64,000 nt of DNA from Synergistaceae bacterium (GTDB lineage Bacteria; Synergistota; Synergistia; Synergistales; Aminobacteriaceae): the NCBI GenBank assembly GCA_031272145.1, contig JAISUL010000005.1, positions 7,098 to 71,097 of the forward strand. Direction: 5' to 3'. The position numbers and the translations under genes are program-made. Of this stretch, positions 566-45,821 are shown piece by piece. Numbering within the stretch: position 1 is the first letter of the stretch; every line of letters begins with the position of its first letter. A model generated the notes under the pieces. It was given only the letters and a program-made list of their open reading frames with translations. It was not told the DNA's origin and made no database searches.

Positions 566-567
566 GG

Positions 568-2930: not shown

Positions 2931-3717
2931 AAGGAAGCGCCTCCTTGAGTGTCAGTATCAGCAGATCGCAGAGCATCGTCTGCGAGAGTTTTTTTTGCGC
3001 GGCGACCAGCCTCAGCTTCTCGACCCTCGCCGCGGCATTGGCGTCCCCGTTCTTCAGCAGGCCTGACGCCCATGACGACAGAAGCGCGTCAAACTCGTCC
3101 CCCTGCCCCGCGACTATGGCCAGCCACTCCGCCTCTGACCTAGGCATGGCAGCAGCCGGGGCCGCGGCCAGCGGAACGGCGAGCGACGTGAAGCGCGACC
3201 GGCTGCGCAGCGTGGGCAGCAGCCCGTCCCCCTCCAGTATAAAGAGGATGCACGCGTGAGACGGGGGCTCCTCCGCGAGCTTGAGCAGGCTGTTGGCCGC
3301 GCTGGGCAGCAGCTTGTCGGCGCAGAGCAGGACTCCGAGCCTGCGCTTAGCCGCAGCTGGCTTCGCCGGCATCTCCCGTATCAGGGCGCGGCATGCCTCA
3401 ACGTTGGCCGCCTTGTCGAACTCGCCTGCGACGACCATGTCCGGGTGGACGAGCCCGCTCTTTTCCTCGCCCTTTTCCTTGCCCTTTTCCTTGCCCTTTT
3501 CCTTCCCCTCGCCCTTGCGCCACCCCATGCAGCCGCCGCACCTGCCGCAGCCCGTGCCGCTGTCGCAGAGGTACAGACGCGACATATCGGCCAGCACCTC
3601 AGCGTGCGCCTCGGCCGGGGCGGACACTGCCCAGCAGTGCGGCACAGTCCCGTCCGCGAAGGCCTTTTTGACGGACTCCGGCAGGCCGGAGTTCATAACA
3701 GCAACGAAATCAGACAA
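2902..3717 (-). CDS. holB: DNA polymerase III subunit delta-prime
   Basis: 271 aa. Cys-rich zinc module CDSGTGCGRCGGC, HPD motif and NSLLKLAEEPP box. Synteny tmk-yaaR-holB-yaaT. Confidence 0.78.
   Translation of the reverse strand: MSDFVAVMNSGLPESVKKAFADGTVPHCWAVSAPAEAHAEVLADMSRLYLCDSGTGCGRCGGCMGWRKGEGKEKGKEKGKEKGEEKSGLVHPDMVVAGEFDKAANVEACRALIREMPAKPAAAKRRLGVLLCADKLLPSAANSLLKLAEEPPSHACILFILEGDGLLPTLRSRSRFTSLAVPLAAAPAAAMPRSEAEWLAIVAGQGDEFDALLSSWASGLLKNGDANAAARVEKLRLVAAQKKLSQTMLCDLLILTLKEALPFERLFGGIR
3469..3504. repeat. perfect 3 x 12-bp tandem repeat (GCCCTTTTCCTT) encoding (KEKG)3 inside holB
   Basis: Read directly from the sequence. In frame, between the zinc module and the HPD motif. Confidence 0.9.
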
Positions 3718-4145
3718 CCCTTTATCTCTCCCATCAGCCTCAGGGCCTCCGCCCGCCCTCCCTCGCGCTTGAAGACAGCCTCAAGCTCGGTGAGCGTCGC
3801 CTCGGTCTTCTCCACGATGACGAAGGTGCTGCGGTCGGTCTTGCGCCACCTCAGGTCTCTTTGGGTGCGGAAGCCCTTCAGCGCCCGCGCGAGGAGGCTC
3901 TTTATTATGTCACGGTACTCCACCAGCAGGCGCTCGGCTGGAAACACCGAGAGCTTCGCGGCGGTCGCGTCGAGCCTCTCCATCAGGACGTCTATCTCGA
4001 CCTCCTCGACCGCCTGCTCCAGCGACGTGCCGAACGAGCCCGAGACCCCGCCGACCCCGCGGTGCGAGTCCCCGCCCTTGCCCTGGGCAGGAGCGGCGGG
4101 AAAGCCCCCGCTCTTGCCGTCCCCCTTGACCTTTACGACGGACAC
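3693..4145 (-). CDS. YaaR/DUF327-like protein
   Basis: 150 aa. Assigned from its size and its position between tmk and holB. No diagnostic motif checked. Confidence 0.55.
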   Translation of the reverse strand: MSVVKVKGDGKSGGFPAAPAQGKGGDSHRGVGGVSGSFGTSLEQAVEEVEIDVLMERLDATAAKLSVFPAERLLVEYRDIIKSLLARALKGFRTQRDLRWRKTDRSTFVIVEKTEATLTELEAVFKREGGRAEALRLMGEIKGCLISLLL

Positions 4146-4762
4146 AACAGACGCCTCACCGCATGGAGCACGTCATCCGCCACGGCCTCGACCGGGGCGT
4201 CGGCGTTCACCTTGGCGATCCGATCTGGGAAGCTGTGCGCCAGCGCAGCGTAACCCTCGGCCACGCGCCGCATCATGTCCAGGTCAGCCTCCAGCCGGTC
4301 GGGCTTGCCTCGCAGGGCAACGCGCCTCATCGCGGCCTCAACTCCTATGTCGAGCAGTATCGTGGCGTCCGGCACGGGGAAGCAGCACCACGAGAGCAGC
4401 ATCTCCACCTCGCCGCGAGGAATCCCCCTCCCCCAAGACTGGTACGCCAAAGTGGAGTCGGAGTACCTCTCGCACACGACCCACCTCCCGGACTCGAGGG
4501 CAGGAGTTATGTCCTCGTCGACGTGGATGCTCCTGTCCGCGAGAAACAACAGGAGCTCCGAGCGGCTCGACATGGGAGGCCCGGCGCGGTGCAGCAGCGC
4601 GTCCCGAAGCACCTTGGGCTCGAACTCGCGCCTCGCCTCAGCAAAGCCGCTCAAGCGGCGGCAGAGGATGTCGGCCTGAGTGCTCTTGCCGCTGCCGTCT
4701 ATCCCCTCGATCGTGATAAATCTTCCTAGTCCTGGCCCTGCCCCTTGCTCCAGCCCCGTCAT
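4133..4762 (-). CDS. tmk: thymidylate (dTMP) kinase
   Basis: ATG at 4762 overlaps the upstream stop (ATGA). P-loop FITIEGIDGSGKSTQ. The Arg-rich 5' extension of track ORF 4133..5029 is discarded. Confidence 0.9.
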   Translation of the reverse strand: MTGLEQGAGPGLGRFITIEGIDGSGKSTQADILCRRLSGFAEARREFEPKVLRDALLHRAGPPMSSRSELLLFLADRSIHVDEDITPALESGRWVVCERYSDSTLAYQSWGRGIPRGEVEMLLSWCCFPVPDATILLDIGVEAAMRRVALRGKPDRLEADLDMMRRVAEGYAALAHSFPDRIAKVNADAPVEAVADDVLHAVRRLLCPS

Positions 4763-6468
4763 TTCGGCGACCCCAAATTTATGACCCGCTTCATGAAGCC
4801 CTCGACGACGTACTCTGTCTTGGATATTCGCAGGGTGCCCTCTTTTATGCGCCGGCTCTTCGTCTCGCTTAGGAACTCCCGCTCCTCGTCGTCGCGCCTG
4901 CCGTCCTTGGATTTCTTGTCGTCCTTCTTCGAGTCCTTTTTGTAGTTGAGCTCGACCACGAGCTCGTTGTTGGCGTCCGCCGCGCCCATCTCGGCCAGCA
5001 GCCTGTCGAAGCCGTCCACTGCCTTCCATCCCTCGTCTATGGCCGTCTGGGACATGGAGTTCACGCCGCCGCCCCGCACGACGAGCTCGCAGCTCTCTGG
5101 GGCGTCGTCCTCCGCCCTCGGTATGACGACCTCGAAGCGCTTTTTGATCGGCTCCTTACGCCAGGGGCGCAGCACGACCTCCAGCGGCAGCCTGCCGCCC
5201 GGTGCGGCGTCCTCGGAGACTATGACGTTCTCTATGGTCAAAAGCCGAGGCTCGCGCGTGACGGACACGTCGAGCCTGAACCCGATCGGAAACACCTCTT
5301 TGAAGGGCTGGGTGAGAAAGGTATCGATTATTTCTGCTGTCTCTCTGAGAAGCTCGTCGCCTATGGACGTGCCGGAGAAAAACGCGTTGGTGCGCGTCCA
5401 GCCCCCGGGCAGCCCGGCGCCGTCGACGCGCAGCGTGACTACAGCGGAGCCCTCGCCCTTGCGCCCCCACTGGTCGTCTATAAGGCCGCCGTAGACCCCC
5501 TCTATCAGCTTGGCGCTCAAAAACGCGTCTCGGGCCACGCGGAAGTTCTTGACTCGCCGCTCCCCTCTCCCGTCGGCGTCGCGAAACACCAAGGTCGAGG
5601 TCACGGACGGGGCGAAGTAGCCCATGCGCCCGCCGATCCCGTCCGGCCTGTCCTGAGTCGCTGTGCCGACCATTGCGACCGGCGAGGCCAGCTTGAACGG
5701 CGACATGCTGCCGTCCACTATTCCGTGGACGTATGCCCTAGCCACGGGGAAGCCCACGTCGCCCATCTCCATGAAGGGGTGCCCGAAGGCCAGGAAGCGC
5801 CCGTCCTTCGAGACGGCCGTAACGGTTCCCGTTGCGAACATGTTCACGTCCCCCCAGACCAGAAGCGCCGACACAGCCTCGCCTGGGGAGAACGGCGGGC
5901 CGTTCAGAGGAAGGTCGCCAGCGCCCCCCGCCCCCGGCGAGACGTCGGCTATGCCGGACAGCCTCGACGCGGCGGAGGCGCTGAGCCCCTCCACCGTGAG
6001 CGGAGCCGACGCCCCGGCAGTTGTTACAGCCCCTCCGCCGCCCAAGAAGACGCCCGCCATGTCGGCTATGGGGGTGACCAGGGCCATGCTGTTGTCGCTG
6101 AAGACCCACCCCGCTGCGAGCGCGCCTATCAATCTGTCTCCGACGAAGACGGGGGAGCCGCTCATGCCCTGGGCGACGCGCCCGGTCGGGTGCTCCTTCG
6201 ACGGCGACAGGCGAATCAGGATGCGGCGCCTGGCCCCGTTCCCCTCAGGGATCACGCCGGCCACCTCTATCGGCAGGCTAACCGGCTTCGTCCCCTTCAG
6301 AACCGTGAGCATGGAGCCCCTCATACCCTCCTTGACGCCGCTGACCGGCATGACGGGACAGTTCGGCACGAACTGGGCAGCCTCGCCGGGGAGAACCGCT
6401 ATTATTATTAATAGAAGAAGAACTAAAAAACGCTTCACGAAAACAACTCCGTTACACCTGATCGGCAT
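4759..6468 (-). CDS. SpoIVB-type (S55) serine peptidase, secreted or membrane-anchored
   Basis: 569 aa. N-terminal hydrophobic segment FLVLLLLIIIAVLPGEA and serine motif GMSGSPVF. An alternative GTG start at 6438 has a GGAG SD. Confidence 0.7.
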   Translation of the reverse strand: MPIRCNGVVFVKRFLVLLLLIIIAVLPGEAAQFVPNCPVMPVSGVKEGMRGSMLTVLKGTKPVSLPIEVAGVIPEGNGARRRILIRLSPSKEHPTGRVAQGMSGSPVFVGDRLIGALAAGWVFSDNSMALVTPIADMAGVFLGGGGAVTTAGASAPLTVEGLSASAASRLSGIADVSPGAGGAGDLPLNGPPFSPGEAVSALLVWGDVNMFATGTVTAVSKDGRFLAFGHPFMEMGDVGFPVARAYVHGIVDGSMSPFKLASPVAMVGTATQDRPDGIGGRMGYFAPSVTSTLVFRDADGRGERRVKNFRVARDAFLSAKLIEGVYGGLIDDQWGRKGEGSAVVTLRVDGAGLPGGWTRTNAFFSGTSIGDELLRETAEIIDTFLTQPFKEVFPIGFRLDVSVTREPRLLTIENVIVSEDAAPGGRLPLEVVLRPWRKEPIKKRFEVVIPRAEDDAPESCELVVRGGGVNSMSQTAIDEGWKAVDGFDRLLAEMGAADANNELVVELNYKKDSKKDDKKSKDGRRDDEEREFLSETKSRRIKEGTLRISKTEYVVEGFMKRVINLGSPK

Positions 6469-19257: not shown

Positions 19258-20215
19258 GGGGCGCAGAGGGTTTGTTTTAGTGTCAGTCCTGCTGCTTGGC
19301 ACCGTGCTCATATCATGCGCGACGGCGTTCGCTTGGTTCTCGCGGGTTCAGGTGAGGTCCGCCCTGCGCGAGAAGGAGTCGCTGGAGCGCCGGAGCGCCG
19401 CCGAGGTGCTGGTCGCCGCGATAATAACCGGGATCAAGTCGAACGTGCTGGTCAAGTTCGACTCGCTGCTGCTTCCGTGGTTCAAGCCGTTCATCGCGCC
19501 CATCGACGACGCGGCTTGGGTGATACAGATAAGGCCGCTCGACGACAAGATACCTATAAGGAACATCTTCCTGCCCGACGGCAGCACGCTGCGCACGGAG
19601 ATGCGCGACATGTGGTACGACATGTGGGAGAAGATGAACCGCCGCGACATGGCCGACCTCGTGCTGGACTTCCTCGACCGCGACACCAAGGCGCGCTCCG
19701 GCAGCAACGAGCGCGAGACTCACGTCAACCGCACAGTGCTGGACATGTCGGAGCTGCTGATGCTGGAGGAGATGACCCCGGCAGTGCTCTACGGCCCTAA
19801 CTCCGAGAAGGCGGCGCTGACCCCCGCCACTGCGACTGCGAACGTGCAGCCGGCGCTGAACTCGGGGTTGGATGTAACGGCCGGCCTGACCGACTACTGC
19901 ACCCTATGGTGCGGCAGCAAGATAAACATCAACGTGGCCCCTGTCCGCGTGATGGAGATACTGCCCGGCCTGAACAGCTCCATCGCCGAGCGGATCGCCG
20001 AGGCCCGCGAGACCGCGCCCATAAAGAACATGAGCGACCTGAGGTCCATACCCGGCTTCCCCGCCTCGACCGCGCGGCTCAGCGGCCTGGTGGGGTTCAG
20101 CAGCCAGTACTTCGAGATACGCATGGAGATACTGGACGACAACGACACCGGGGGCGGCTTCGACGTGATATTCGACAAGTCAACGGGACTGATAGTCCTC
20201 TGGGAGGAGATCTGA
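19214..20215 (+). CDS. GspK-like pseudopilin/secretion protein
   Basis: 333 aa. RRGFVLVSVLLLG N-terminus and a helix-hairpin-helix-like segment VMEILPGLNSSIAERIAEAR...LRSIPGF. Confidence 0.62.
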   Translation: MQASRRSSYSRSRARGRRGFVLVSVLLLGTVLISCATAFAWFSRVQVRSALREKESLERRSAAEVLVAAIITGIKSNVLVKFDSLLLPWFKPFIAPIDDAAWVIQIRPLDDKIPIRNIFLPDGSTLRTEMRDMWYDMWEKMNRRDMADLVLDFLDRDTKARSGSNERETHVNRTVLDMSELLMLEEMTPAVLYGPNSEKAALTPATATANVQPALNSGLDVTAGLTDYCTLWCGSKININVAPVRVMEILPGLNSSIAERIAEARETAPIKNMSDLRSIPGFPASTARLSGLVGFSSQYFEIRMEILDDNDTGGGFDVIFDKSTGLIVLWEEI

Positions 20216-20217
20216 AA

Positions 20218-21417
20218 TTGGCGCGCTACGATAACATCGCGTTTTTCCGCGTCGACTCAAGCGGGGCGGAGAAGATCGGGCCGGCGGCGACAGGCAGGGC
20301 GTCTATGAGGCAGGCCAAGACCGCGGTGTCGCTTGTGCCGCTCAAGTCCCTGTCCGTGTCGTCCTTCGCGTTTCCGTTCGGCAACGTCCTTCGCGTGAGG
20401 GACGCGCTCAAGATGCAGAACCTGCCCTACGTCTCGGCGGGCGGCATGGAGCTCTTCCCCTCCGTCATCAAGCACGGGCGGCGCAGCAGCGAGGGAGTGG
20501 TGTGGTTCGCCTCGTCGAGCGAGCTGGGCGGCGTCCAATCCCCGATGGAGCGGCGCGACAACCGCGTGTGGCCCGCGGCACTGCCCTTGGTCTCGGAGAT
20601 CGGCGGCGACGGGGCCACCATCTGGATCGACGCCGAGAACATCTGCTCCATGCTGTGGCGAAACAAGGTTCCGACGTTCTACCGATGGCGGCCCAGACCG
20701 GCCGGAATGGACGACAGGTCAGCGGCCGAGTCGGAGACGTCGTGGCTGATGAACTACGCCGAGGCCGGAAGCGAGGTCGGCTCCGAGTGGGGAAACAAAC
20801 CGGTGTACGTGTTCCACTGGACGACCGAGGCGGAGCGGCTGCCGGAGATAATAAAGGCCAGCCTCGCCCTCTGCCCATGGATAGAGGACGTGAACCTCTC
20901 CGTAAACGCGCTCGACAGCGTGCTGGGCCTGGAGCGCATCGTGCGGTCTTTGTCGCGCGCCGCCATGTGGATATTGGTGATGGGCCTGCTGGTGCTCGTG
21001 GGCAACGCCATGAAGTACTGGGACGCTAAGCGGGACCTGGACGGCCTGCGCGACCGATCCTCCGACCTCTACCGCTCGGCGTTCGACCCGTCGAGGTCGG
21101 GCAGGATAGCCGACCCCCTTGGCCTGGCCCGGTCGAAGATGGCGGAGCTCCGCGGAGGGACATCCACGGGCAGGACACTCCCCGACGTCCTGGAGGACCT
21201 CGGCGGCATATTCGAGCGCAACCCCAGCATGGACGTCCAGCTGGACAGCATGAGGTACACGGCGGACGGGGTGGACTACACTGGCACGGCCAAGGAGATG
21301 GACACAGTCCAGCAGTTCCGCGAGGCGTGGGCGGAGAAGGCCGCCGCTGTGCCGTTCCCGAACCTGAGGAGCGCGCCTGGGATAGGGTACAGGTTCGACC
21401 TGAGCGTGAGGTGGTAG
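20218..21417 (+). CDS. GspL/PilM-N-like secretion or pilus assembly protein
   Basis: In-frame TTG at 20218, just after the gspK-like stop. Has an internal TM (MWILVMGLLVLVG). Assigned from context. Start is uncertain. Confidence 0.45.
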   Translation: MARYDNIAFFRVDSSGAEKIGPAATGRASMRQAKTAVSLVPLKSLSVSSFAFPFGNVLRVRDALKMQNLPYVSAGGMELFPSVIKHGRRSSEGVVWFASSSELGGVQSPMERRDNRVWPAALPLVSEIGGDGATIWIDAENICSMLWRNKVPTFYRWRPRPAGMDDRSAAESETSWLMNYAEAGSEVGSEWGNKPVYVFHWTTEAERLPEIIKASLALCPWIEDVNLSVNALDSVLGLERIVRSLSRAAMWILVMGLLVLVGNAMKYWDAKRDLDGLRDRSSDLYRSAFDPSRSGRIADPLGLARSKMAELRGGTSTGRTLPDVLEDLGGIFERNPSMDVQLDSMRYTADGVDYTGTAKEMDTVQQFREAWAEKAAAVPFPNLRSAPGIGYRFDLSVRW

Positions 21418-35160: not shown

Positions 35161-36381
35161 ATGAAAAATCGAGACATCTACCTGCGCCAGCTAACGGCGT
35201 TCAAGGACACGTCGCCCGTGAAGGTTGTGACGGGCGTCCGGCGCTGCGGCAAGTCCACGCTGCTCGACCTCTACGAGCGCCACCTGCGCTCGCTGGGCGC
35301 CAGCGCCATCCTGCGGATGAACTTCGAGTCCCTGGAGTTCGAGCATATAAAGACCTACCGAGACCTATACGCCTACATCAAGGCGTGGCTCAGGCCCGAG
35401 GCCCACGGGGCCGAGCCCCCTGGGGCTCACGCCCCTACCGCGTATATCCTGCTGGACGAGGTGCAGCAGGTCGAGGGGTGGGAGCGCGCCGTGAACTCGC
35501 TCCGGCTCGAGCGAGGCGTCGACCTGTACGTCACCGGGTCTAACGCGCGGCTGCTCTCGTCGGAGCTCTCGCCCCTGCTCTCGGGGCGCTACGTGGAGAT
35601 AAAGATGCTGCCCCTCTCCTTCGCCGAGTTCATGGACTTCAACGGCTACCCGCGCGAGGAGGCCGACGTGCGCTTCAACGACTACCTTAAGCGCGGGTCA
35701 TTCCCCGGCGTGACGGAGCTTCGAGACAACCCGACGGCGATCGAGCAGCTGGTCGAGGGGATATACGACACGATCATAATGAAGGACGTGATCATGCGGA
35801 ACTCGGTCCGCGACGCCGCGCTTCTGGACGGGGTGGTGCGCTTCCTGTGCGCCAGCGTCGGGAATTTTCTGTCCACGAAAAAAATCAGCGGCTATCTGAC
35901 CAGCGCCGGGAGGAAGACGAGCGCCGAGACGATCGACAGCTACGTCCGGATGCTGGAGGACGCGTTTTTCATATACCGGGCGCGGCGGTACGACCTCAAG
36001 GGGCACATGCATCTGAAGACGCAGGAGAAGTTCTACGTCGTGGACACGGGCATACGCCGCGCGCTCGTCGGGGCCGGAGACTACGGATTCCTTCTGGAGA
36101 ACGTGGTCTATCTGGAGCTCCTGCGGAGGGGGTACAGGGTCTCCGTTGGCAAGCTGGGCTCGCTGGAGGTGGACTTCGTGGCGGCCAAGGGCGACCGAAT
36201 CGTGTACTACCAGGTGACGGCGTCGGCGCTGGACAAGGGGACGCGGGAGCGAGAGCTGGCCCCGCTGCGCCGCATCCCCGACCACCACGAAAAGGTTCTC
36301 CTGTCGATGGACAGGACGCCGATCAGTAGCTTCGACGGGATACGAAACGTGAACATAGTGGATTTTCTGCTGGGAGCATGA
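35161..36381 (+). CDS. AAA ATPase with DUF4143 domain
   Basis: 406 aa. Walker A GVRRCGKST, Walker B YILLDEVQ. Architecture typical of the AAA_14/DUF4143 family. Confidence 0.8.
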   Translation: MKNRDIYLRQLTAFKDTSPVKVVTGVRRCGKSTLLDLYERHLRSLGASAILRMNFESLEFEHIKTYRDLYAYIKAWLRPEAHGAEPPGAHAPTAYILLDEVQQVEGWERAVNSLRLERGVDLYVTGSNARLLSSELSPLLSGRYVEIKMLPLSFAEFMDFNGYPREEADVRFNDYLKRGSFPGVTELRDNPTAIEQLVEGIYDTIIMKDVIMRNSVRDAALLDGVVRFLCASVGNFLSTKKISGYLTSAGRKTSAETIDSYVRMLEDAFFIYRARRYDLKGHMHLKTQEKFYVVDTGIRRALVGAGDYGFLLENVVYLELLRRGYRVSVGKLGSLEVDFVAAKGDRIVYYQVTASALDKGTRERELAPLRRIPDHHEKVLLSMDRTPISSFDGIRNVNIVDFLLGA

Positions 36382-36391
36382 GCCCCCCTGC

Positions 36392-36844
36392 CTAGCTCCG
36401 CCGCCTCCACGCGACCGCGGCGAGTATAAGCGCCAACGCGCCGAGCGACGCCGCGTCGCACCCGGTGCTGCTGTCCGACGTGTCGGGAACAGGCTCCTTC
36501 GTGCCGGTCGCAGTGAATTCCTGAAGTAGCGTGCTCTGTCCATCTGAGGTGGTCACCGTGTAGCTGATCTGATCGCCAGACTCAAGCCTAAAAGCAACAA
36601 TAACCTCCTCGCCATCGTTCACCACATCACGACTCCAAACCAGGAAGCTGCCACTAGGAATGATGGGAACATAAACAGTCACGCCTCCAGCTGTGTACGT
36701 CACGTCGACCTCCTTATTAGGCATCACTGCCTTCGGATCGACCGTGGTGCCGTCGTCATACGTAGGTCCAGTTATCACCAGCATGGCCCACGCTGCCGTC
36801 GGTAGGGAGAGGCAGAGGCAGAGCAAAAAAACCACCTTACGCAT
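36392..36844 (-). CDS. small secreted protein: stand-alone copy of the S8 C-terminal domain plus Gly-Cys sorting tail
   Basis: 150 aa. Signal peptide MRKVVFLLCLCLSLPTAAWA. The body aligns with the C-terminal domain of the adjacent S8 protein (YDDG..V...AV.PN.EV..TYTA, ISYTVT). Tail STGCDAASLGALALILAAVAWRRRS. Confidence 0.65.
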   Translation of the reverse strand: MRKVVFLLCLCLSLPTAAWAMLVITGPTYDDGTTVDPKAVMPNKEVDVTYTAGGVTVYVPIIPSGSFLVWSRDVVNDGEEVIVAFRLESGDQISYTVTTSDGQSTLLQEFTATGTKEPVPDTSDSSTGCDAASLGALALILAAVAWRRRS

Positions 36845-38704
36845 CTAACTACCCTTTCTAAACATGGCGAGCAGCGCCACCGCGGCCAAGGCGAACATGC
36901 CGGCCACTTCGCAGCCGCCACCGCCGCTGCCAGACGGGACGACGGGAGGCACCGGCACTGTGCCGGTCGCGACGAATACCTGATCCAACGTGCTCTTCTC
37001 CCCTGTTGAGTTATTGGTCGCCGTCACCGTGTAGCTGATCTGAGCGCCTGGCTCCAACACAAAAGAAACGTAGCCATCATCGCTGCTGCTCCCCGTCAGC
37101 CATTTTGATAACGAACCGGCTACAACAGTCGGGTAGAGGGGGAATGTAAACGTCGAGCCTACTGCCGTGTACGTCAGGTTGACTTCTTGGTTAGGAGTCA
37201 CCGCAGACGCATTGACCGGGCTGCCGTCGTCGTACGCAAGCTCTGTTACGGCTATCGCCGACTCCGGCTCCGGCGCCGGCGCCGCCGCGTTCATCGCCGT
37301 CCCCACGTCCAGCAGACCGTGGACAGAGACCTTGTAGCTCGACACGTTCGCGGAAGGCTGAACATACACCTTCGTCCCGTCGTAGTACTCGTAGTAGCCA
37401 CGCGCCTCAGGGTTCACACCCGCGTTTGCGTTGTCCAGAACGCGCTCCTTCAGCTGGGACGCTGTCTCGTCCGGGTATTTTGCGGCGAGCAGCGCCACTG
37501 CCCCGGCCACATGCGGGGCGGCCATCGATGTGCCGTCATCGGAACCGTAGGGCTCGTTCGGGTTTTCCGCCTTTTTGGACAGCACGGTGCTCCATATGGC
37601 GACGCCGGGCGCGGCTATGTCCACGTACTTCTCGCTCCAGTTCGTGAACTCCGCCGCCGCGTCATCGGCGTCCGTCGCCCCGACCACGATCATGTTCTTC
37701 AAGAACCGCCCAAAGGACGCAGGGTAGCAGTAATCCCCCTTATCAATGTAAGTCTCATAGACATCGTCGGCAATGTTCACCGGCGACGGAGCGCCGACCT
37801 CCAGGCTCTCGTTGCCCGCCGCAACCACTATGACGGTTCGGTTCAGATCGTCGAGCGCCTTAAAAGCCAGGAAGAATGGATTGCTCATGAGCTCTTCGGG
37901 CGAGGCTCCCTGCCAGCTGCCAAGCGACAGGTTGAGCGTCGGAACGTGCAGCGATGGGTCTTTTCTAAGGCAGTCCGCCAGGTAGTTCAGCCCTGCTATG
38001 ATGAGGCCGTTAGGCGCACCCTCGTCTGTGAACACCTTGAGGAATATCACCTGCGTGTTCCAGTTGACCCCGACGACTCCCACGCCGTTGTCGCCCAAGG
38101 CGGCGACGGTTCCGGTGACGTGCGTGCCGTGTCCGTCGTTGTCCTGGACGTTCTTGTCTGGCTCGTCCTTCGTGTCGAAGTTTCGGCTGTAATCCATGTT
38201 GATGACGCCCGCGAGGTCAGGATGGCTGACGTCAACGCCGGTGTCCATCACGGCAGCGTAGATGCTCTTGCCGCCCCCCGTGGTGGTGTCCCAAGCCTTC
38301 TCCGCCCCGATCCGCTTCATGCCCCACATACTGCCGTTCTGGTAGTACGGATCGTTGGGCGCCCTAAGCGCCCTGTTGATGTAGTTCGGCGTGGCGCTCA
38401 GCACGTTGGGGTTCTCCTTGAGCGAGGCGATGAGCTCCTCCGTGGTCTTGGTGTCGGACTTCACGTGGACGATGACCTTGCCCTGAAGCTCCGAGATGGC
38501 CGAGTAGGTGCGAGCCACCCGGGCCCCAGCAGCCTCAGCGGCGCTGCGAACATACCCGTCGGACATGGCCTGCGCCCCGCTCGTGCCGCCGCGCATGACG
38601 ACCAGCGCCTCCCCCTCGACGTAGCGGGCAGCTTCGGCTTCAGAAAAGACGGGGAATAAGAATACCGCGGCGAACAGGGCCGCCAGGGTCCTAAAAGCCT
38701 TCAT
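36845..38704 (-). CDS. subtilisin-like (S8) serine peptidase with I9-like propeptide and Gly-Cys sorting tail
   Basis: 619 aa. Signal peptide. Triad contexts MDTGVD, HGTHVTGTVAA and GTSMAAPHVAGAVALL. Tail GGGGCEVAGMFALAAVALLAMFRKGS. Confidence 0.9.
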   Translation of the reverse strand: MKAFRTLAALFAAVFLFPVFSEAEAARYVEGEALVVMRGGTSGAQAMSDGYVRSAAEAAGARVARTYSAISELQGKVIVHVKSDTKTTEELIASLKENPNVLSATPNYINRALRAPNDPYYQNGSMWGMKRIGAEKAWDTTTGGGKSIYAAVMDTGVDVSHPDLAGVINMDYSRNFDTKDEPDKNVQDNDGHGTHVTGTVAALGDNGVGVVGVNWNTQVIFLKVFTDEGAPNGLIIAGLNYLADCLRKDPSLHVPTLNLSLGSWQGASPEELMSNPFFLAFKALDDLNRTVIVVAAGNESLEVGAPSPVNIADDVYETYIDKGDYCYPASFGRFLKNMIVVGATDADDAAAEFTNWSEKYVDIAAPGVAIWSTVLSKKAENPNEPYGSDDGTSMAAPHVAGAVALLAAKYPDETASQLKERVLDNANAGVNPEARGYYEYYDGTKVYVQPSANVSSYKVSVHGLLDVGTAMNAAAPAPEPESAIAVTELAYDDGSPVNASAVTPNQEVNLTYTAVGSTFTFPLYPTVVAGSLSKWLTGSSSDDGYVSFVLEPGAQISYTVTATNNSTGEKSTLDQVFVATGTVPVPPVVPSGSGGGGCEVAGMFALAAVALLAMFRKGS

Positions 38705-39338
38705 TTAATACTCCACCTTTCTCTATGGCTATCGCGCGCCGAATCATCGGCTCGCGCTCAGCGATTATCTCCAGCGCGTCCCCATCCACGTTGTTCAAGT
38801 ACATCCCCCACATGGCCAGAGCCTCCGTGTCGCCGTCAAGCTTCCATTCCAGCAGCCGCGCAAGCTCTAGCACGTGAATCGCCAGCGCGTCCGTGAGCAG
38901 CGCGTTACTTTCAGCCGAGCGGACGTGAAACACTTCGTGGTACTCCTTCGGATCGTTCTCCTCGAAGAGCAGGGAGTCGGCGAGCAGGATGCTTATCACC
39001 TTCGGCAGAGCGAGGTAGAAATTCTCGTCACACGCGTCGTCCACGATCGCCTGGGTCAAGTAGTACATCGCCCGCCACCTCGCGTTCTCCTTGCTGACGC
39101 ACTGGAGTTCGATATGCAGCTTCTCGTGCGCCGCGCTGCGCCAGGCCAGGATGTTCAGCACTAACGGCTTGGGCTCGGTGCACTTCGGCGGCGTGATGGC
39201 ATCCAGCAGCATCAGCTCCTCCGGCAGAATCTCGACCTCCAGGACGAGGCTCAGGAAGCGGGCCAGGATGTCCTTCGTGTCGACGCGGCCAAAAATGCGC
39301 CTGAAGACGTCGTCGCTCTTCCTATCCACGCAACACAT
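38691..39338 (-). CDS. Rpn/YhgA-type PD-(D/E)XK nuclease family protein, truncated at both ends
   Basis: 215 aa from ATG 39338. Paralog of 43443..44357 ([29 protein letters not shown]). Lacks the N-terminal ~10 aa and C-terminal ~80 aa. LDI is replaced by LNI. The 3' end overlaps the S8 start by 14 nt. Confidence 0.65.
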   Translation of the reverse strand: MCCVDRKSDDVFRRIFGRVDTKDILARFLSLVLEVEILPEELMLLDAITPPKCTEPKPLVLNILAWRSAAHEKLHIELQCVSKENARWRAMYYLTQAIVDDACDENFYLALPKVISILLADSLLFEENDPKEYHEVFHVRSAESNALLTDALAIHVLELARLLEWKLDGDTEALAMWGMYLNNVDGDALEIIAEREPMIRRAIAIEKGGVLNEGF

Positions 39339-39342
39339 GACA

Positions 39343-42300
39343 TTACAACCCTCCACATCTGCTGCGCCGAAGCGCCAGCAGCGCCACTGCGGCAAAGGGC
39401 AAGGAAAAGGCCAAAGAAAACACTCCGGCCACCTCGCAGCCGCCGGAGGAACTGCGCCTGCCCGTGTCCTTCATATCCGAGAACTCCAAAGGCCTGGAGT
39501 ACGCCTGAGTATACCCCTTGCCGTCCTTCAAAGTGTACGTGATGCTGTCCAAGCTGCCCTTGTTCAGCTCCGCGGCGCTCGGCACGCCGAAGGTTACCAT
39601 CAGGCCAGGGTCAGAGGCGGCGCCGCTGATCTGCTGATCACCTACCCCTACTAGCTCCCAGTCGGGCGGCGAGACGAACGAGGCGATGCCCGTCACGTCC
39701 ACGCTGACGTCCTTGAGTTTTGCTCCGTCCGCGCCGGGGAGCAGGGGGACGAAGACGCTGACCTTGACGCCGTTCGCGTCCTGCTCGTATTCGAGTTTGC
39801 AGTCGGAGGGGGTCTGGGCGAAGTAGGCCTTCATCGCCGCCTCGAGGTCGAGCAGGCCGTGGGCCGAGACCGTGTAGCCCGAGACGTTGCTGGAGTGCGG
39901 GATCGTCACCTTCTTCGACCTGTCGTAGAACTCGTAGTACCCGTTCACCTCGGGGTTCACGTTCGCGTTTGCGCTGTTCAGGATGCGGGATTTCAGCTGC
40001 GAAGCGGTGGTGCCGGGGTAGGCCGCGGCGAGCAGGGCGACGGAGCCGGCCACGTGAGGCGCGGCCATCGACGTGCCCTGGAACGGGACGTAGAACACGT
40101 TAGAGGATGGGTTCTCATACACCTCGGGCGGGATGGTGCTCCATATCTCCATGCCCGGCGCCGCTATGTCGACGCACTTCTCGCTCCAGTTGGTGAAGTA
40201 CGCCGCCTTGTCGTTGGACGCCAACGCCCCGACCACGATCGCGTTCTTCAGGAGCTGCCCGAGGGACGACGGGTATTGGTACCAGCCCTTTTCAACGTAC
40301 AGGCCGTACTGATGCGGGTCGTCGATGGTGACAGGTGCTGGCACCCCCACCTCCATGCAGTTGTTGCTGGCCGCGATAACCATGACCGTGCTGTCCAGGT
40401 CGTCGAGCGCCTTGAAGAACTCTAGCGACGCGTCGTCCAGCGTGTCCGAGAAGCCGCCTATGGACATGTTCACCGCCGGTATGCGCAGCGCCGGGTCGTT
40501 CAGCAGAAGCCAGACGATGTAGTCGAGGGAGGCGTAGAGGGCGCGCCAGTCGCCCCTGCCGGTTGTGCCGAGCATCCTGAGGGCGATCACCTTGGTGTTC
40601 CAGTTGACTCCGACCACGCCCAGCCCGTTGTTACCCACCGCGGCTATGGTGCCGGAGACGTGGGTTCCGTGCCCGTTGCTGTCCGCGTAGTGGTCGTCCG
40701 GGTCGACGAAGTACTCTCCCTCGCTGTCCACGCTGATGAGCAGGTCGCCGCTGTCGTAGACGAAGTTGAGGCTGAGCTCGGTGTCGACGACGCCCGCGAG
40801 GTCGGGGTGGTCAACGTAGATGCCGCTGTCGATCACCGCCACGCGGATCTCGGAGTCCCCCGTGGTGACGTCCCAAGCCCCGTCGGCGTTGATCCGCTTC
40901 ATGCCCCAAAGGCGGCCGTCCTTGTAGTAAGGGTCGTCAGGCGCCACCTCTGACGGCTGGACGTCGACTGCCTCGATGACGCGGATAGGCGACGCGGCCA
41001 GCACGTCCGGGTTCGTCTTGAGCGAGGCTATGAGCGCCTCCGTGGTCTTCGGGGACTTCATAAGGACGATGATCTTGTTACGAACCTGAGAGACCGAGGC
41101 GAACGTGTGGACGACCTTGGCTCCCGCCGCTGCCGCCGTGCTCCGGACGTACCCGGCGCTGTTCGGCAGGGAGGCAGCGCTGACCGCCTCAGCCGTCTTG
41201 TTGCGCAGGACGACCAGAGCCGTCCCGTCGACATATGTCTCAGCAAACGCAGCGGGGATGACAACGGAGAAGGAAAGCCCCAGGGCAAACAAAAGCGCCC
41301 ACATGCCGCGCTTCCCGCGGAGCGCCAGCGCCAGCAGCAGCGCCACAACCCCGCCCGCGCCGAGCGAGACGGCGTAGCAGCCCACGTCCGAGTCCGGCCT
41401 CGGAGTCGGAGTTGGGGTCGGCACCGTGAAGGTTTGCCATAGCTGCGTGGATGTCCCAGTGGCTGCCGCCGTTGAAAGGCTCGTGGCTCTCACGATGTAG
41501 CTGAACACATCCCCGGAGCTTAGCGAAAACGTGGCCGTTATCTTAGCATCGCCAGGTACCGTCTTAAAATCCGATGGCGTGCCGCTGACCGTCTCGATCT
41601 CAAGGGACGAGTCCGGCACTTCATACGTTCGGCTTATCTGCTCGCCTGGCGTGACGTACGTGAGGGCCTCCGGGGTGACGCCGCTGTCGCTGGTGATCAC
41701 CATTGGCGCCTGCGCCGTCATGGCCTGAGCTAGGTTGATGAGCCCGTTGGCCGAGAGCGTCGTGCCGCTGGCCACGGGGGGGTTCACGCTCGTGTCCGTG
41801 TTTTGCAGAACGCGGGCCTTCAGACGGGGGGCGTCCTCGCCGGGGTGTTCAGCGGCGAGGAGCGCGACGGCGCCGGTCACGTGCGGCGTGGCCATCGACG
41901 TGCCGTGCTTGTAGCCGTAGAGCTCGTGATCCGTGTTGTACTCGTCGGTGGGCAGCATGGTGCTCCATATCCAGACGCCGGGCGCGGCCACGTCGACGTA
42001 CTTATCGCTCCAGTTCGAGAACTCCGCCGCCGTGTTGTCGGACGCCGTTGCCCCGACCACGATCATGTTGTTCAGGAACCGCCCGAGCGACGCGGGATAG
42101 ACGTACCAGCCCTCGGTGATGCCCTCGTCGTTGTGTGCTGGTGCCGGGGCGCCGACCTCAAGTCCCTCGTTGCCGGCGGCCACGACTATGACGACTCGGT
42201 TCAGGTCGTCGAGGGCCTTGTAGACCTCGAAGTACGCGCCGTCCTTGGCGTACTCTTCAGGCGTGGTTGGCTCCCAGCCGCCGAAGGACATGTTGACCGC

Positions 42301-43113
42301 CGGAACGCGCATCGATGTGTTGCGCCTCAGCAGCGTGGTCAGGTAATCGATGGCGTACATCTCGGCGGCGGTCGAGGCCTCGCCGGTGTCGTCGTCGAAT
42401 ATCTTAAGGAATATCACCGGCGCGTTCCAGTTTACGCCCGCGACGCCTATGCGGTTATTTCCAACGGCCGCGACGGTGCCGGTGACGTGGGTGCCGTGTC
42501 CCAGGGCGTCAGAGACGTCCATATCTGGCTGCCCGCTCTGCGTGGCGAAGTTCCGGCTGTAAGTCTTGTCGACGACGTCCTGAAGATCTTCGTGCGCGAG
42601 GTAGACGCCAGTGTCCATGATGGCGGCGTAGACTTTCTCGCCGCTAGCCGTTGCACCGCCCGTGTTGATGTCCCAAGCCTCCTCTGCCCTGATCGCCTTC
42701 ATGCCCCATAGCTGGCTGTAGTCTGGGTCGTCGGGCTCCTTGAACGTCTTCCTGATGTAGTTCGGCATGGCGCTGAGGACGTCCGGGTCTTCGTACAGGG
42801 CGTCGATGAGCTCCTCCGTTGTCTGAGTGCTGGACTTCATATGGACTATGACCTTATTCCGCACCTCCGAGACGGCCGAGTATGTGCGCACCGCCTCTGC
42901 CCCGGCTGCCTCCGCGACGCGGCGGACGTACCCCGCGCCAGCGCCGCCGGAGAGCGACGACGCGCTGAGCGCCCCGCCCGTGCTGTTGCGCAGGACGACC
43001 AAGGCCTCGCCCTCGACGTACCGGGCAGCTTCAGCTTCAGAAAAAGCAGAGGCGAGAAATAAAAACACCGCGACCGTGGCGAGCAGTGCCGCGAGGGGTC
43101 TGAAAATCTTCAT
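39343..43113 (-). CDS. fusion of two complete pre-pro-S8 peptidases in one reading frame
   Basis: ATG 43113 follows an AAAGGTGA SD; 1256 aa. Module 1 (43113-41305) has a signal peptide, propeptide, triad (MDTGVY, HGTHVTG, GTSMATPHVTG) and tail DVGCYAVSLGAGGVVALLLALALRGKRG. It is followed directly by M (41304) WALLFALGLSFSVVIPAAFA. Module 2 has its own triad (IDSGIY, HGTHVSG, GTSMAAPHVAG) and tail SSGGCEVAGVFSLAFSLPFAAVALLALRRSR. Confidence 0.8.
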   Translation of the reverse strand: MKIFRPLAALLATVAVFLFLASAFSEAEAARYVEGEALVVLRNSTGGALSASSLSGGAGAGYVRRVAEAAGAEAVRTYSAVSEVRNKVIVHMKSSTQTTEELIDALYEDPDVLSAMPNYIRKTFKEPDDPDYSQLWGMKAIRAEEAWDINTGGATASGEKVYAAIMDTGVYLAHEDLQDVVDKTYSRNFATQSGQPDMDVSDALGHGTHVTGTVAAVGNNRIGVAGVNWNAPVIFLKIFDDDTGEASTAAEMYAIDYLTTLLRRNTSMRVPAVNMSFGGWEPTTPEEYAKDGAYFEVYKALDDLNRVVIVVAAGNEGLEVGAPAPAHNDEGITEGWYVYPASLGRFLNNMIVVGATASDNTAAEFSNWSDKYVDVAAPGVWIWSTMLPTDEYNTDHELYGYKHGTSMATPHVTGAVALLAAEHPGEDAPRLKARVLQNTDTSVNPPVASGTTLSANGLINLAQAMTAQAPMVITSDSGVTPEALTYVTPGEQISRTYEVPDSSLEIETVSGTPSDFKTVPGDAKITATFSLSSGDVFSYIVRATSLSTAAATGTSTQLWQTFTVPTPTPTPRPDSDVGCYAVSLGAGGVVALLLALALRGKRGMWALLFALGLSFSVVIPAAFAETYVDGTALVVLRNKTAEAVSAASLPNSAGYVRSTAAAAGAKVVHTFASVSQVRNKIIVLMKSPKTTEALIASLKTNPDVLAASPIRVIEAVDVQPSEVAPDDPYYKDGRLWGMKRINADGAWDVTTGDSEIRVAVIDSGIYVDHPDLAGVVDTELSLNFVYDSGDLLISVDSEGEYFVDPDDHYADSNGHGTHVSGTIAAVGNNGLGVVGVNWNTKVIALRMLGTTGRGDWRALYASLDYIVWLLLNDPALRIPAVNMSIGGFSDTLDDASLEFFKALDDLDSTVMVIAASNNCMEVGVPAPVTIDDPHQYGLYVEKGWYQYPSSLGQLLKNAIVVGALASNDKAAYFTNWSEKCVDIAAPGMEIWSTIPPEVYENPSSNVFYVPFQGTSMAAPHVAGSVALLAAAYPGTTASQLKSRILNSANANVNPEVNGYYEFYDRSKKVTIPHSSNVSGYTVSAHGLLDLEAAMKAYFAQTPSDCKLEYEQDANGVKVSVFVPLLPGADGAKLKDVSVDVTGIASFVSPPDWELVGVGDQQISGAASDPGLMVTFGVPSAAELNKGSLDSITYTLKDGKGYTQAYSRPLEFSDMKDTGRRSSSGGCEVAGVFSLAFSLPFAAVALLALRRSRCGGL

Positions 43114-43185
43114 TTTAATATCACCTTTCTTGGGGGTAGGCTTACCCCCTGAACGCGGCAAGTATATCACGCAAGGGGCGGCCCC

Positions 43186-43390
43186 GCGGCAAGCTCCTCG
43201 CGGGTCAGGTCTGTGAAGCGAAGCACGTCATCGAAGGAGAGGCCACCGTCGAGCATCCTGCGGGCCGTTTCGAGACGGCCCTCCGTGCGGCCCTCCGCTC
43301 CTCAGCGCTCTGCATGAACGCCTCCTCTACGGTCATCGCACGCCGAATCATAGGTTCGCGCCTAGCGATCATATCCATCACGCTCCCCTC
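43186..43390 (-). pseudogene. remnant of the 3' end of an Rpn/YhgA-type nuclease gene
   Basis: Aligns with 43456-43788 of the intact paralog but has an internal deletion of about 125 bp. Includes a 97-bp exact match. No start codon or N-terminal domain. Confidence 0.65.
43292..43388. repeat. 97-bp exact direct repeat, copy 1 (partner at 43692..43788)
   Basis: Compared base by base. The offset is exactly 400 bp. Confidence 0.95.
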
Positions 43391-43442
43391 CAAAATCAGT
43401 TTTCTCTGACGGACTGGCGCGCGCTGTTCAAGGAGCTTCGGT

Positions 43443-44357
43443 TTAGGTATGCCAGCCCTGCGCAAGCTCCTCGCGGGTCAGGCCTGTGAGGTTGAGCACA
43501 TAGTCGAGGGAAGCGCCACCGTCGAGCATCTTGCGTGCGATTTCGAGACGACCTTCGAGGCGGCCCTCGCGGCGACCCTTTCGCAGGCCGACCCGCTCGC
43601 CCTTTTTGCGCCCGGTCTTCTCGCCGCGCTGCTTCGCGACGCTTATCGCGTTGCTCCAGTCCAGCCGGGTGCGCTCGCGGATGTCGTACAGCCTCCGCTC
43701 CTCAGCGCTCTGCATGAACGCCTCCTCTACGGTCATCGCACGCCGAATCATAGGTTCGCGCCTAGCGATCATATCCATCACGCTCCCCCTTATGTTGTTC
43801 AGATACATCCCCCACAGCACCAGGGCATCCGTGCCGTCGTCGAGCTTGCGCTTCATCAGGCGCGGAAGCTCTATGACGTGAATCTCCAGCGCGTCCGTAA
43901 AGAGCACGCGCTCCTCGTCGTCAGAGATGTGGAACACCCCGTGGTACTTCGCCTGGTCGCGCCACTTAAAGAGCCGGAAGTCCAGAATCAGGATGCTTAT
44001 CATCCTCGGCAAAGCTGAATAATTTCCCCCGACGGGCAAGTCCTCCGTGAACGCTCGGCCCCAATAGTACATCGCCCGACGCTCCGTGTTGCCCTCGTTG
44101 ACGCACTGGAGCTCTATGTGCAGCTTCTCGTGCGCCGCGCTGTGCTCGGCCATGATGTCCAGAACAGATGACTTGCCCGTGATGTACTTCGACGGCAGCG
44201 CGGGGTTCAGCAGCCTCAGCTCCTCCGGTCTAATCTCGACGTCCAAGACCAAGCTTAGAAAGCGGGCAAGGATGTCCTTCGTGTCCTCCTGGCCAAAGAT
44301 GCGCTTAAAAGCGTAGTCATTTTTGCGGTTCACTCGGTATGACTCCATGGGACGCAT
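43443..44357 (-). CDS. Rpn/YhgA-type recombination-promoting nuclease / putative transposase family protein
   Basis: ATG 44357 follows a GGAGG SD; 304 aa. N-terminus [25 protein letters not shown]...HIELQ nuclease-like motifs and a basic helical C-terminal tail. The 145-aa 5' extension of the track ORF overlaps the VOC gene and is discarded. Confidence 0.8.
43692..43788. repeat. 97-bp exact direct repeat, copy 2 (inside the intact Rpn-type gene)
   Basis: Identical to 43292..43388. Confidence 0.95.
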
Positions 44358-44389
44358 CCCTCCTTTCTCACAAACTATACCACACACCC

Positions 44390-44782
44390 CTACTCGGCCA
44401 GCTCCACCAGGCCGACATCCCGCCCGTACAAGAACGCCACTCTGCGCCCTCCCATCGCGGCGGCAGGGCTCGGGCGCTCCACCACTACGAACCCGCGGCC
44501 CCTCAGCTCCTCGACGGCGCGCTCGATGTCCGGGGCGGAGCAGCACACGTGATACGGGGACGGGCCGTTCTTGCTCAGCCACTGCCCAACAGGGGAAGGC
44601 CGGCCTTCGAGCGGCGCGATGAGCTCGATCTCCCCGCCCTCCCTCCCATGCATAAAGAGAATCCTGACGCCGCGGCCCGTGTCCTCGACCGCCGCGCCGC
44701 TGCGCTCGAAGCCGAGGAGCGCGAACTGCGCTGCGGCGGCCTCCAAATCCCTCACGGCGTAACCTACGTGCTCGATGCCCAT
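44390..44782 (-). CDS. VOC family protein (glyoxalase / methylmalonyl-CoA epimerase-like)
   Basis: ATG 44782; 130 aa. [16 protein letters not shown]... with HVC near the C-terminal half. Confidence 0.72.
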
Positions 44783-44897
44783 TTTCTTGCATCCCCTCCG
44801 AATTCTTTTCTTACGCAACCGCTTGACACATGGTGTATAGTCTAAGAGACGGGTTCGCGCCCTCAAACGCGAGCATACATGGAAACGGGGGATTTTC

Positions 44898-45821
44898 ATG
44901 CAGGAAGTGAAGAAGGTTATAACTGAAGTCGGGACGAACGAGTGGCAGGTTGTGGTCTTCTTCCTTGGAGATCAGTCCTTCGCCATCAACGTCGACAAGA
45001 CGCGCGAGATACTCCGCTGGCCGGGCTGCCGCGTCATCCCCGACTCGCCGGGCGCCATGATCGGGATCACGTCCGTGAGGGGCGAGGTGCTTCCTCTGGT
45101 CGACCTCAGGGTCTTCTTGAACGTCGGCTCGAAGATAGAGGCCGAGCAGAGCAAGGTCATCATAGCCGAGTTCAACGAGGTCAAGCTGGGCTTCGTCGTT
45201 GACGCCGTGGAGAGGATATACCGCATCAACTCCGAGGACCTGGACTCCACGCTCACCGGCAAGTACCTCGGAGAGTGGGTGCTCTACGTCATCAAGAGGG
45301 ACAAGAGGAACGTCCTTCTGCTGGACTACGAGGCCATAGTCCAGCACATAAGCCCGCGGCTCTCGATAGCCAACAACTGGAACCCCGAGGAACTCGAGGC
45401 CCTGACCTCGGAGATCGGCAACCCGGCGGACTTCCGCATCATCGTCGCCGAGGACTCGCCGCTGATCCGCGCTCAGATAAAGGACTCTCTCGCGTCGGGC
45501 GGCTTCACGAACCTCGTGATCTGCTCCGACGGCAAGGAGGCCTACGACCGCATAGCGCACGGTCTGGACGAGGGGAAGGGGTTCGACGTCCTCATCACCG
45601 ACGTTGAGATGCCCCGCCTCGACGGCCTGGCCCTGACCCGGCGGCTGAAGGAAAACGAGGCCACGCGCGACCTGCCCATCATAGTGTTCTCGTCCATAAT
45701 GGCCCAGGACATCAAGGTCAAGGCAGCCAGCGTCGGCGCCAAGTACCAGATAGCCAAGCCCGAGATCTCGCGGCTGGTCGAGTACGTCGTCAAGGTCATC
45801 AAGGAAGCAAAGGCCGCCTGA
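44898..45821 (+). CDS. cheV: chemotaxis protein CheV (CheW-like domain + receiver domain)
   Basis: 307 aa. N-terminal CheW-like domain (FAINVDKTREI) and a C-terminal REC domain (IIVAEDSPLIR, ITDVEMPRLDG, KP). Confidence 0.85.
   Translation: MQEVKKVITEVGTNEWQVVVFFLGDQSFAINVDKTREILRWPGCRVIPDSPGAMIGITSVRGEVLPLVDLRVFLNVGSKIEAEQSKVIIAEFNEVKLGFVVDAVERIYRINSEDLDSTLTGKYLGEWVLYVIKRDKRNVLLLDYEAIVQHISPRLSIANNWNPEELEALTSEIGNPADFRIIVAEDSPLIRAQIKDSLASGGFTNLVICSDGKEAYDRIAHGLDEGKGFDVLITDVEMPRLDGLALTRRLKENEATRDLPIIVFSSIMAQDIKVKAASVGAKYQIAKPEISRLVEYVVKVIKEAKAA

Follow-up and report, generated by a model that had tools for sequence, protein, structure and literature searches.

Internal sorting tags and two-module precursors in described systems

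The closest described counterpart of the protein reported here is MXAN_5598 of Myxococcus xanthus, which carries an internal MYXO-CTERM motif and was proposed to be a fusion of two genes; its N-terminal part is expected to be processed still, and internal sorting tags are said to stay functional (PMC11980579). We analyzed a 64,000-nt stretch of a Synergistaceae genome (hereafter the window; positions 7,098 to 71,097 of contig JAISUL010000005.1, GenBank assembly GCA_031272145.1, corresponding to C30:7098-71097 in our numbering of this 2.05-Mb, 107-contig genome), in which one open reading frame (ORF) joins two predicted exported subtilases, the sorting-type tail of the first being directly followed by a signal peptide-like segment of the second. 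As in MXAN_5598, a Cys-type tag resembling the tripartite tags of the CPBP/myxosortase-processed class sits in the middle of the fused protein, and another envelope module follows it. The two proteins differ in tag family (MYXO-CTERM/MrtX in MXAN_5598, Synerg-CTERM/MrtS here) and in their downstream part, which is an outer membrane beta-barrel/OmpA module in MXAN_5598 and a paralog of the upstream part in the fused ORF. Moreover, a cleavable second signal peptide and a shared basic loop are predicted in the fused ORF, whereas they were not described for MXAN_5598 (PMC11980579).

Synerg-CTERM is predicted to be a substrate of MrtS, a CPBP intramembrane protease, and to be tied to a dedicated type II secretion system (T2SS; Haft, bioRxiv 10.1101/2023.06.07.544157). 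In all of the subtilase tails of this cluster, as in that system, a Cys is directly followed by a helix and then by basic residues; however, the definition of the system covers tags at the C-terminus, and one tag of the fused ORF is internal. The preprint mentions neither fusions nor internal tags (10.1101/2023.06.07.544157). Among the Cys-type pairs, only MYXO-CTERM/MrtX has been tested experimentally, with cleavage of MYXO-CTERM by MrtX being shown; the working model comprises Cys lipidation, helix removal, and then T2SS-dependent surface display (PMC11980579).

The fused protein does not belong to the CspBA family (model NF040809, 37 bits versus a cut-off of 1250). CspBA of Clostridioides difficile also carries two S8-type modules in one ORF, later parted by proteolysis, but it is a spore protein that has no signal peptides, membrane hairpin, or sorting tag, and one of its modules is a pseudoprotease. 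In the envelope precursors of flaviviruses and pestiviruses, and in FbcH of Bradyrhizobium, an internal signal comes after a stop-transfer helix, and the products are released from one another by signal peptidase. These polyproteins are unrelated to subtilases, are conserved and functionally established, and do not contain a C-terminal-type sorting tag. The fusion in the Bradyrhizobium FbcH cytochrome b-c1 precursor is documented (PMC4986455). In the literature on bacterial polyproteins with internal signal peptides and on Synergistota subtilases, we found nothing directly relevant. An internal-tag fusion has already been noted in the sister MYXO-CTERM system, and the present one would be the first with a Synerg-CTERM-type tag and the first to join two paralogous proteases.

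One ORF encodes two complete subtilases

The fused ORF lies on the minus strand, as do the other genes of the window described below unless stated otherwise, and forms a single open frame from GTG 43170 or ATG 43113 to the stop codon at 39343-39345. The likely start is ATG 43113, which is preceded, 7 nt ahead, by the Shine-Dalgarno (SD)-like sequence AAAGGTGA (43121..43128). From this codon, the ORF (39343..43113) comprises 1256 amino acids plus the stop, with module 1 corresponding to residues 1-603 and module 2 to residues 604-1256. Module 1 consists of a signal peptide (MKIFRPLAALLATVAVFLFLASAFSEAEA, 43027..43113; cleavage site predicted by the AxA rule only), a pro-region (residues 30-135, 42709..43026), an S8 catalytic domain (41704..42708), a C-terminal domain with a Pro/Thr linker (41389..41703), and an internal sorting-type tail, DVGC-YAVSLGAGGVVALLLALAL-RGKRG (residues 576-603, 41305..41388), the Cys of which is Cys579. 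Module 2 follows the same plan, with Met604 and a second signal peptide-like segment, MWALLFALGLSFSVVIPAAFA (41242..41304; predicted signal peptidase I site after A624), a pro-region (residues 625-735, 40909..41241), an S8 catalytic domain (39889..40908), a C-terminal domain (39454..39888), and a terminal Synerg-CTERM-like tail, SSSGGC-EVAGVFSLAFSLPFAAVALLAL-RRSRCGGL (39346..39453).

The Peptidase_S8 family (Pfam PF00082) matched two stretches of the fused protein (302 bits versus a cut-off of 21.8), and each module matched solved subtilases with E-values of 1e-24 to 1e-30. The Asp-His-Ser order and the oxyanion Asn are intact in module 1 (D167, H206, N315, and S406) and in module 2 (D762, H815, N917, and S1015); in both modules, these residues sit in DTG/DSG, GHGTH, GN/SN, and GTSMA motifs. 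The propeptide family PF22148 was matched only by a 619-aa subtilase encoded nearby (36845..38704; 26.7 bits), and neither module scored alone; the region equivalent to this stretch nevertheless aligns well in both modules, and the pro-region of module 1 is homologous to it. An earlier note on this DNA, based on the sequence alone, had described two complete pre-pro-subtilisins with intact catalytic triads in one frame, and both points hold: the frame is continuous and contains two S8 stretches and two full residue sets. Judged from its sequence, the ORF represents a genuine in-frame fusion, and each of the two exported subtilases that it joins is complete.

The two modules are 44% identical to each other, and the unfused 619-aa paralog shares 53% identity with module 1 and 48% with module 2. 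In a tree of 43 relatives, these three sequences formed a clade (SH-like approximate likelihood ratio test, 99%) in which module 1 and the 619-aa paralog were sisters and module 2 branched outside them. Their root-to-tip lengths were similar (0.70, 0.60, and 0.48), and neither module therefore looks like a decaying copy. As read from this tree, the modules are old, lineage-specific tandem paralogs that form a clade with the 619-aa subtilase.

Comparison with related loci, which the earlier note had suggested, revealed separate single-module genes in all of the 40 relatives examined, none of which belongs to the same genus; the best match was 48% identical. Tandem unfused pairs were present in G012:C21, G011:C18, and G017:C4. 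Among proteins of 691-2198 aa in a search of 5.8 billion proteins, only one other protein (P0003) had two S8 modules with a tail between them. No sequence other than the fused protein itself exceeded about 51% identity among 1.84 billion representative proteins, and metagenome contigs of the Joint Genome Institute (JGI) contained nothing close. A protein search with the junction only (residues 570-730) returned the query alone and was dominated by low-complexity words.

The junction carries no stop codon and is predicted to form a hairpin

The junction reads ...DVGCYAVSLGAGGVVALLLALALRGKRG, then MWALLFALGLSFSVVIPAAFA, then ETYVDG, with the ATG at 41304-41302 and no in-frame stop nearby. In the assembled sequence, this ATG therefore directly follows the internal tail and opens the signal peptide-like segment, as the earlier note had reported. 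That note had also called the tail of module 1 a full sorting tail, which is true in part: the tail has the Cys, the helix (residues 580-598, 41320-41376), and a basic cluster (RGKRG, residues 599-603, 41305-41319), but not the Gly/Ser-rich motif, the position of which is occupied by RPDSDVG. The Synerg-CTERM model TIGR04564 (cut-off 22.5 bits) did not match it at E ≤ 10. The same model scored 25.3 bits for the tail of the 619-aa paralog, which passes, and 14.1 bits for the tail of module 2, which is below the cut-off. Unlike the tail of module 2, which is terminal, the internal tail is followed by 653 residues.

A hydropathy analysis revealed four transmembrane (TM)-like segments in the fused protein, at residues 2-27, 577-600, 603-625, and 1228-1249. 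The two central hydrophobic segments, of 19 and approximately 17-21 residues, are parted by the 5-residue basic sequence RGKRG, and the second is followed by an AxA site. Within the second signal segment (residues 604-624), the hydrophobic region has a hydropathy of about 2.2, a Pro is found at position -5, and A-F-A occupies positions -3 to -1; the only basic residues available to this segment are those of the preceding RGKRG loop. An AlphaFold2 (AF2) model of the junction, built from a single sequence and of low confidence (pLDDT 59), contained helices at residues 576-598 and 603-627 with a break at RGKR, and was used as weak support only. The junction is thus predicted to form a membrane hairpin composed of helix 580-598, the loop RGKRG, and helix 605-621, followed by AFA/E. 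This layout agrees with the hairpin of tail helix and signal peptide that had been put forward for this site.

Initiation at ATG 41304, or an internal transcript, might in principle supply most of module 2 as a separate protein, in which case the fusion would not matter for this module. The Met has been kept exactly at the join, both here and in a metagenomic protein with a comparable join (P0122, described below), and the SD of a 150-aa gene of the same cluster is also weak (-4.2 kcal/mol), which indicates that weak SDs can serve in this cluster. However, the SD duplex energy at ATG 41304 was -4.3 kcal/mol, at the 45th percentile of the ORF-internal background (mean, -4.2 kcal/mol), whereas the true starts of module 1 and of the 619-aa paralog reached about -7 kcal/mol. 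The absence of a clear SD, already remarked upon in the earlier note, is therefore borne out, and the internal start that the note had offered as an alternative is not favored, as no promoter-like site was detected at the junction on the minus strand either; a terminator-like site was not detected there on that strand. Moreover, there is no stop codon upstream of 41304, which makes coupling by termination and reinitiation impossible, while the TAG-ATG arrangement ahead of the 150-aa gene could allow it. The segment beginning MWALLF... has no basic n-region when taken alone, and a further join of this kind in the same genome, on contig C60, has no Met at all. Separate production of module 2 is, in our view, very improbable.

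Two kinds of artefact were considered for the join. Three indirect points make an assembly chimera unlikely: the join sits 48 kb deep in a contig of 102 kb, the genome contains no second copy of any k-mer of at least 21 nt from 41230-41400, and modules 1 and 2 share only 65-79% nucleotide identity, with no conversion tract. At the base level, a real stop codon between G603 and M604 might have been lost or miscalled in the consensus. Two observations speak for such an error: a single contig of a single assembly is the only known source of the protein, and between the fused boundary and the one downstream of the unfused paralog there is essentially a one-codon difference. Yet nothing but a clean 3-nt loss or a stop-to-sense miscall would qualify; such events are rare in short-read consensus sequences, and the affected join would be one that is unique at this k-mer length and deep in its contig. 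A second stop-less tail-to-signal join was also found on another contig of this genome, and two more in independent metagenome assemblies. We consequently regard a consensus error as quite unlikely.

Predicted export and processing of the fused protein

The genome encodes the machinery that the Synerg-CTERM-type tails of the fused ORF and of the 619-aa paralog would require. A predicted MrtS sorting protease was identified on contig C75 (9069-9581) with the model NF040589 (235 bits versus a cut-off of 130), as well as a signal peptidase I (177.7 bits). The window itself encodes the GspL protein of a Synerg-type T2SS, identified with NF041617 (250 bits versus a cut-off of 150) at approximately 20311-21417 within a plus-strand ORF (19906..21417). 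As the GspL gene is located about 18 kb from the protease cluster, several cargo genes neighbor the dedicated secretion operon. Given tails of this type, MrtS, and the T2SS, the modules are best read as surface-displayed proteases of a bacterium that we take to be an amino-acid-fermenting member of the Synergistota. With signal peptidase I, MrtS, and the T2SS all encoded, cleavage of the fused chain back into two proteases is plausible.

In the reading that we favor, with a probability of roughly 0.55, two tandem, coupled Synerg-CTERM subtilase genes became one ORF through the loss of a stop codon, and export as a hairpin followed by cleavage still yields two pro-subtilases. The ancestral genes would have been translationally coupled across a tail-stop-ATG boundary from which the stop was lost. 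Signal peptide 1 would carry module 1 across the inner membrane via the Sec pathway, until the tail helix (residues 580-598) stops transfer and leaves RGKRG on the cytoplasmic side. The segment 605-621 would then re-insert, with its N-terminus inside and its C-terminus outside, as an internal signal that uses RGKRG as its n-region and exports module 2, and signal peptidase I would cut after AFA624. Module 2 would keep its normal terminal tail, which may undergo Cys modification, MrtS cleavage, and T2SS-dependent surface display, while module 1 would be left with a tail longer by 26 residues, made up of the loop and the spent signal peptide. The cell would in this way still gain two separate pro-subtilases, which would make the fusion topologically self-correcting. 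The origin by stop loss, the topology of the hairpin, the two cleavages, and any surface display are inferred here; the join itself is real in the assembly, and the fusion is probably harmless.

Several observations weigh against this explanation. The signal peptidase I site after A624 was placed by the -3/-1 rule only. The internal tail is not recognized by TIGR04564 and has no Gly/Ser cluster, which makes MrtS processing of module 1 doubtful. The fusion is known from one assembly only, with no ortholog above about 51% identity. The join of P0003 is one long hydrophobic stretch that cannot form a hairpin; not all such fusions therefore keep the topology. Finally, the fused and the unfused boundary have diverged too far at the nucleotide level for an alignment to identify the lost codon.

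Some of these observations would also fit a fusion that is real but recent and slightly deleterious, in which the hairpin is misprocessed and one or both proteases are effectively lost. Possible outcomes include a missing signal peptidase cut, a module 1 that is stuck in the inner membrane with a tail that is no MrtS substrate, or a poorly exported module 2. The atypical internal tail and the finding that the fusion is conserved nowhere in the searched sets are consistent with such damage, as are the absence of the C60 fusion from the 107 genomes of the family, the example of P0003, which indicates that topologically bad fusions do occur, and the presence in this genome of at least four further subtilase loci, which might make up for the loss. 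Both modules have, however, retained every catalytic residue in a long open frame, their branch lengths are near that of the unfused paralog, and the junction still has all of the elements for stop-transfer, re-insertion, and AxA cleavage. A damaging fusion therefore seems rather unlikely to us. If the chain is not processed, the locus would still provide a clean example of packed in-frame tandem genes that are one mutation away from fusion.

Probable origin of the fusion by loss of a stop codon

An unfused comparator was found 4.5 kb downstream, at the boundary of the 619-aa paralog and the 150-aa gene. The sequence there reads ...AAVALLAMFRKGS-TAG-ATG-RKVVFLLCLCLSLPTAAWA, with the tail of the paralog (…LLAMFRKGS), the stop codon, and the start of a gene with a signal peptide following one another in the same frame with zero spacer (TAG/ATG, 36842..36847). 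The product of the 150-aa gene (36392..36844) consists only of a signal peptide (MRKVVFLLCLCLSLPTAAWA), a C-terminal domain of the protease type, and a tail resembling Synerg-CTERM. The c-regions of the signals are alike, with PTAAWA in the 150-aa gene and PAAFA in module 2. Loss or mutation of the stop codon at 36842-36847 would recreate the architecture of the fused junction. The 150-aa gene resembles a stand-alone copy of the C-terminal domain, with that domain of the 619-aa paralog being its closest counterpart (repeat D17; 83% over 47 nt).

A comparable arrangement was found in a related genus (G012:C21), where two tandem subtilase genes share one frame and read ...RRGSNR-TGA-RVRRKKVT-MKRRFWL... 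(L032 3893-3922), that is, ...RRGSNR*RVRRKKVTMKRRFWL. They are parted by a single TGA and eight sense codons, which hold the AGGAGG of the second gene, and by its sequence this pair is one point mutation from the same kind of fusion. Another contig of the present genome (C95) has a further in-frame boundary, RR*PGMKKSLILALVV. As tail-stop-ATG boundaries in frame exist both in the cluster and in a relative, the loss of one stop codon is most likely the most economical origin of the fusion, and it may have occurred either as a 3-nt deletion at the boundary or as a stop-to-sense change. The earlier note had suggested the deletion of a spacer containing an Rpn-type gene. This proposal finds no echo in the sequence: nothing derived from an Rpn gene remains at the join, and a simpler route by stop loss is visible downstream. 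An analysis of the repeats in 36000-45600 likewise revealed no Rpn-like remnant and no recent conversion tract at the join, and the spacer deletion was rejected as the probable origin.

On contig C95 (frame +1, approximately aa 408-450), a cargo tail (…FFVRKTLRR) is followed by a stop, PG, and an in-frame MKKSLILALVVLTTTLLSAC. This last sequence looks like a lipoprotein-type signal, and the PG-M-K spacing is similar to that of the P0122 join.

Similar joins in other proteins

Three further stop-less joins between a tail and a second module were identified, one in this genome and two in metagenomic sequences, and none of them is conserved in relatives. The first lies on contig C60 (nt 83-6130; locus L039 covers 749-5728), in a 2015-aa open frame with two adhesin-like modules. 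Its join reads ...GDGSGC-TAGSWPFIAVLCAVAGLIGLA-HHKRRSGRS-FISLLIFILALLAVSTPAMA, then ASD, and the second signal-like segment ends in AMA/A. Across the 107 genomes of the family, matches to this frame covered one half or the other and never extended across the join. The first 120 residues of the C60 frame contain no Met. In the second, P0122 (metagenomic, L037 3074-6991), the join reads ...GGSGGGC-NSGGLWLIIAAAVFLFV-PG-MKSLKILALVCIIVPAFSVAIA, then SEYREGEALVV..., and the second subtilase ends after the propeptide, on a gapped scaffold containing 10 N.

The third, P0003 (metagenomic, 1003 aa, L027 254-3265), has two complete S8 modules separated by a single 27-residue hydrophobic join with no basic loop. 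A shared origin with the fused ORF was rejected, since the modules of P0003 fall outside the clade of the window and its genomic context differs; it therefore represents an independent event.

With the fused ORF included, three of the four joins are compatible with a hairpin, a proportion that may reflect selection for topology or just the mutational route that is taken most often. Many giant proteins of 1200-6500 aa from the search of representative proteins, with two or three subtilase catalytic domains per chain (e.g., P0085, P0086, P0126, P0170, and P0188), resemble the fused ORF in having several S8 domains in one chain, but nearly all of them have no TM-like segment between the catalytic domains. 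None of the junctions inspected in these giants consisted of a sorting tail followed by a signal peptide; as judged from their sequences, they are multidomain proteins rather than two complete precursors.

A more general, and tentative, possibility is that tail-to-signal hairpins are a recurrent, tolerated, and perhaps useful "polyprotein linker" for Cys-type cargo, with the fused ORF being a working 1:1 precursor of two proteases. The helix and basic cluster of the tag would then supply what the next signal peptide needs, and stop loss between packed tandem cargo genes would lead to a precursor that signal peptidase and MrtS divide again into two surface proteins. The four independent joins, three of them compatible with a hairpin, would in that case represent a general class undescribed in Synergistota. 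Processing of the hairpin as predicted would make sorting tags at C-termini and signal peptides at N-termini complementary in topology; bacteria could in that case merge neighboring surface-protein genes free of cost, and ORFs of this kind would need to be split or flagged by annotation pipelines. The fused ORF is also a natural test substrate, for MrtS on an internal, non-canonical tag and for signal peptidase I on an internal signal in a diderm. The significance of the case is bounded by its being lineage-specific and found in a single genome, and by the fact that a general proposal of this kind was made before for one Myxococcus protein.

Neighboring genes and repeats

The presence of Rpn-type genes in the cluster, stated in the earlier note, was confirmed by matches to PF12784/TIGR01784. 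One Rpn-family (PDDEXK_2) gene is located upstream of the fusion (43443..44792), and a truncated copy, 53% identical to it, lies between module 2 and the 619-aa paralog (38691..39395). The latter is shortened at both ends (234 versus 449 aa). In 36000-45600, the repeats correspond to copies of a unit made up of an Rpn gene and a subtilase gene, with 65-87% nucleotide identity, which indicates an old segmental duplication of this unit. The Rpn copies are 5004 nt apart, and the subtilase copies (36845-38704 and 41305-43113) about 4380 nt.

In the spacer ahead of the fused protease gene, part of the Rpn-family gene's 3' region is duplicated as a perfect 97-nt direct repeat, with its two copies 400 nt apart (43292-43388 and 43692-43788). 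A second repeat, of 107 nt and 80% identity, was observed at 43189-43295 and 43462-43568.

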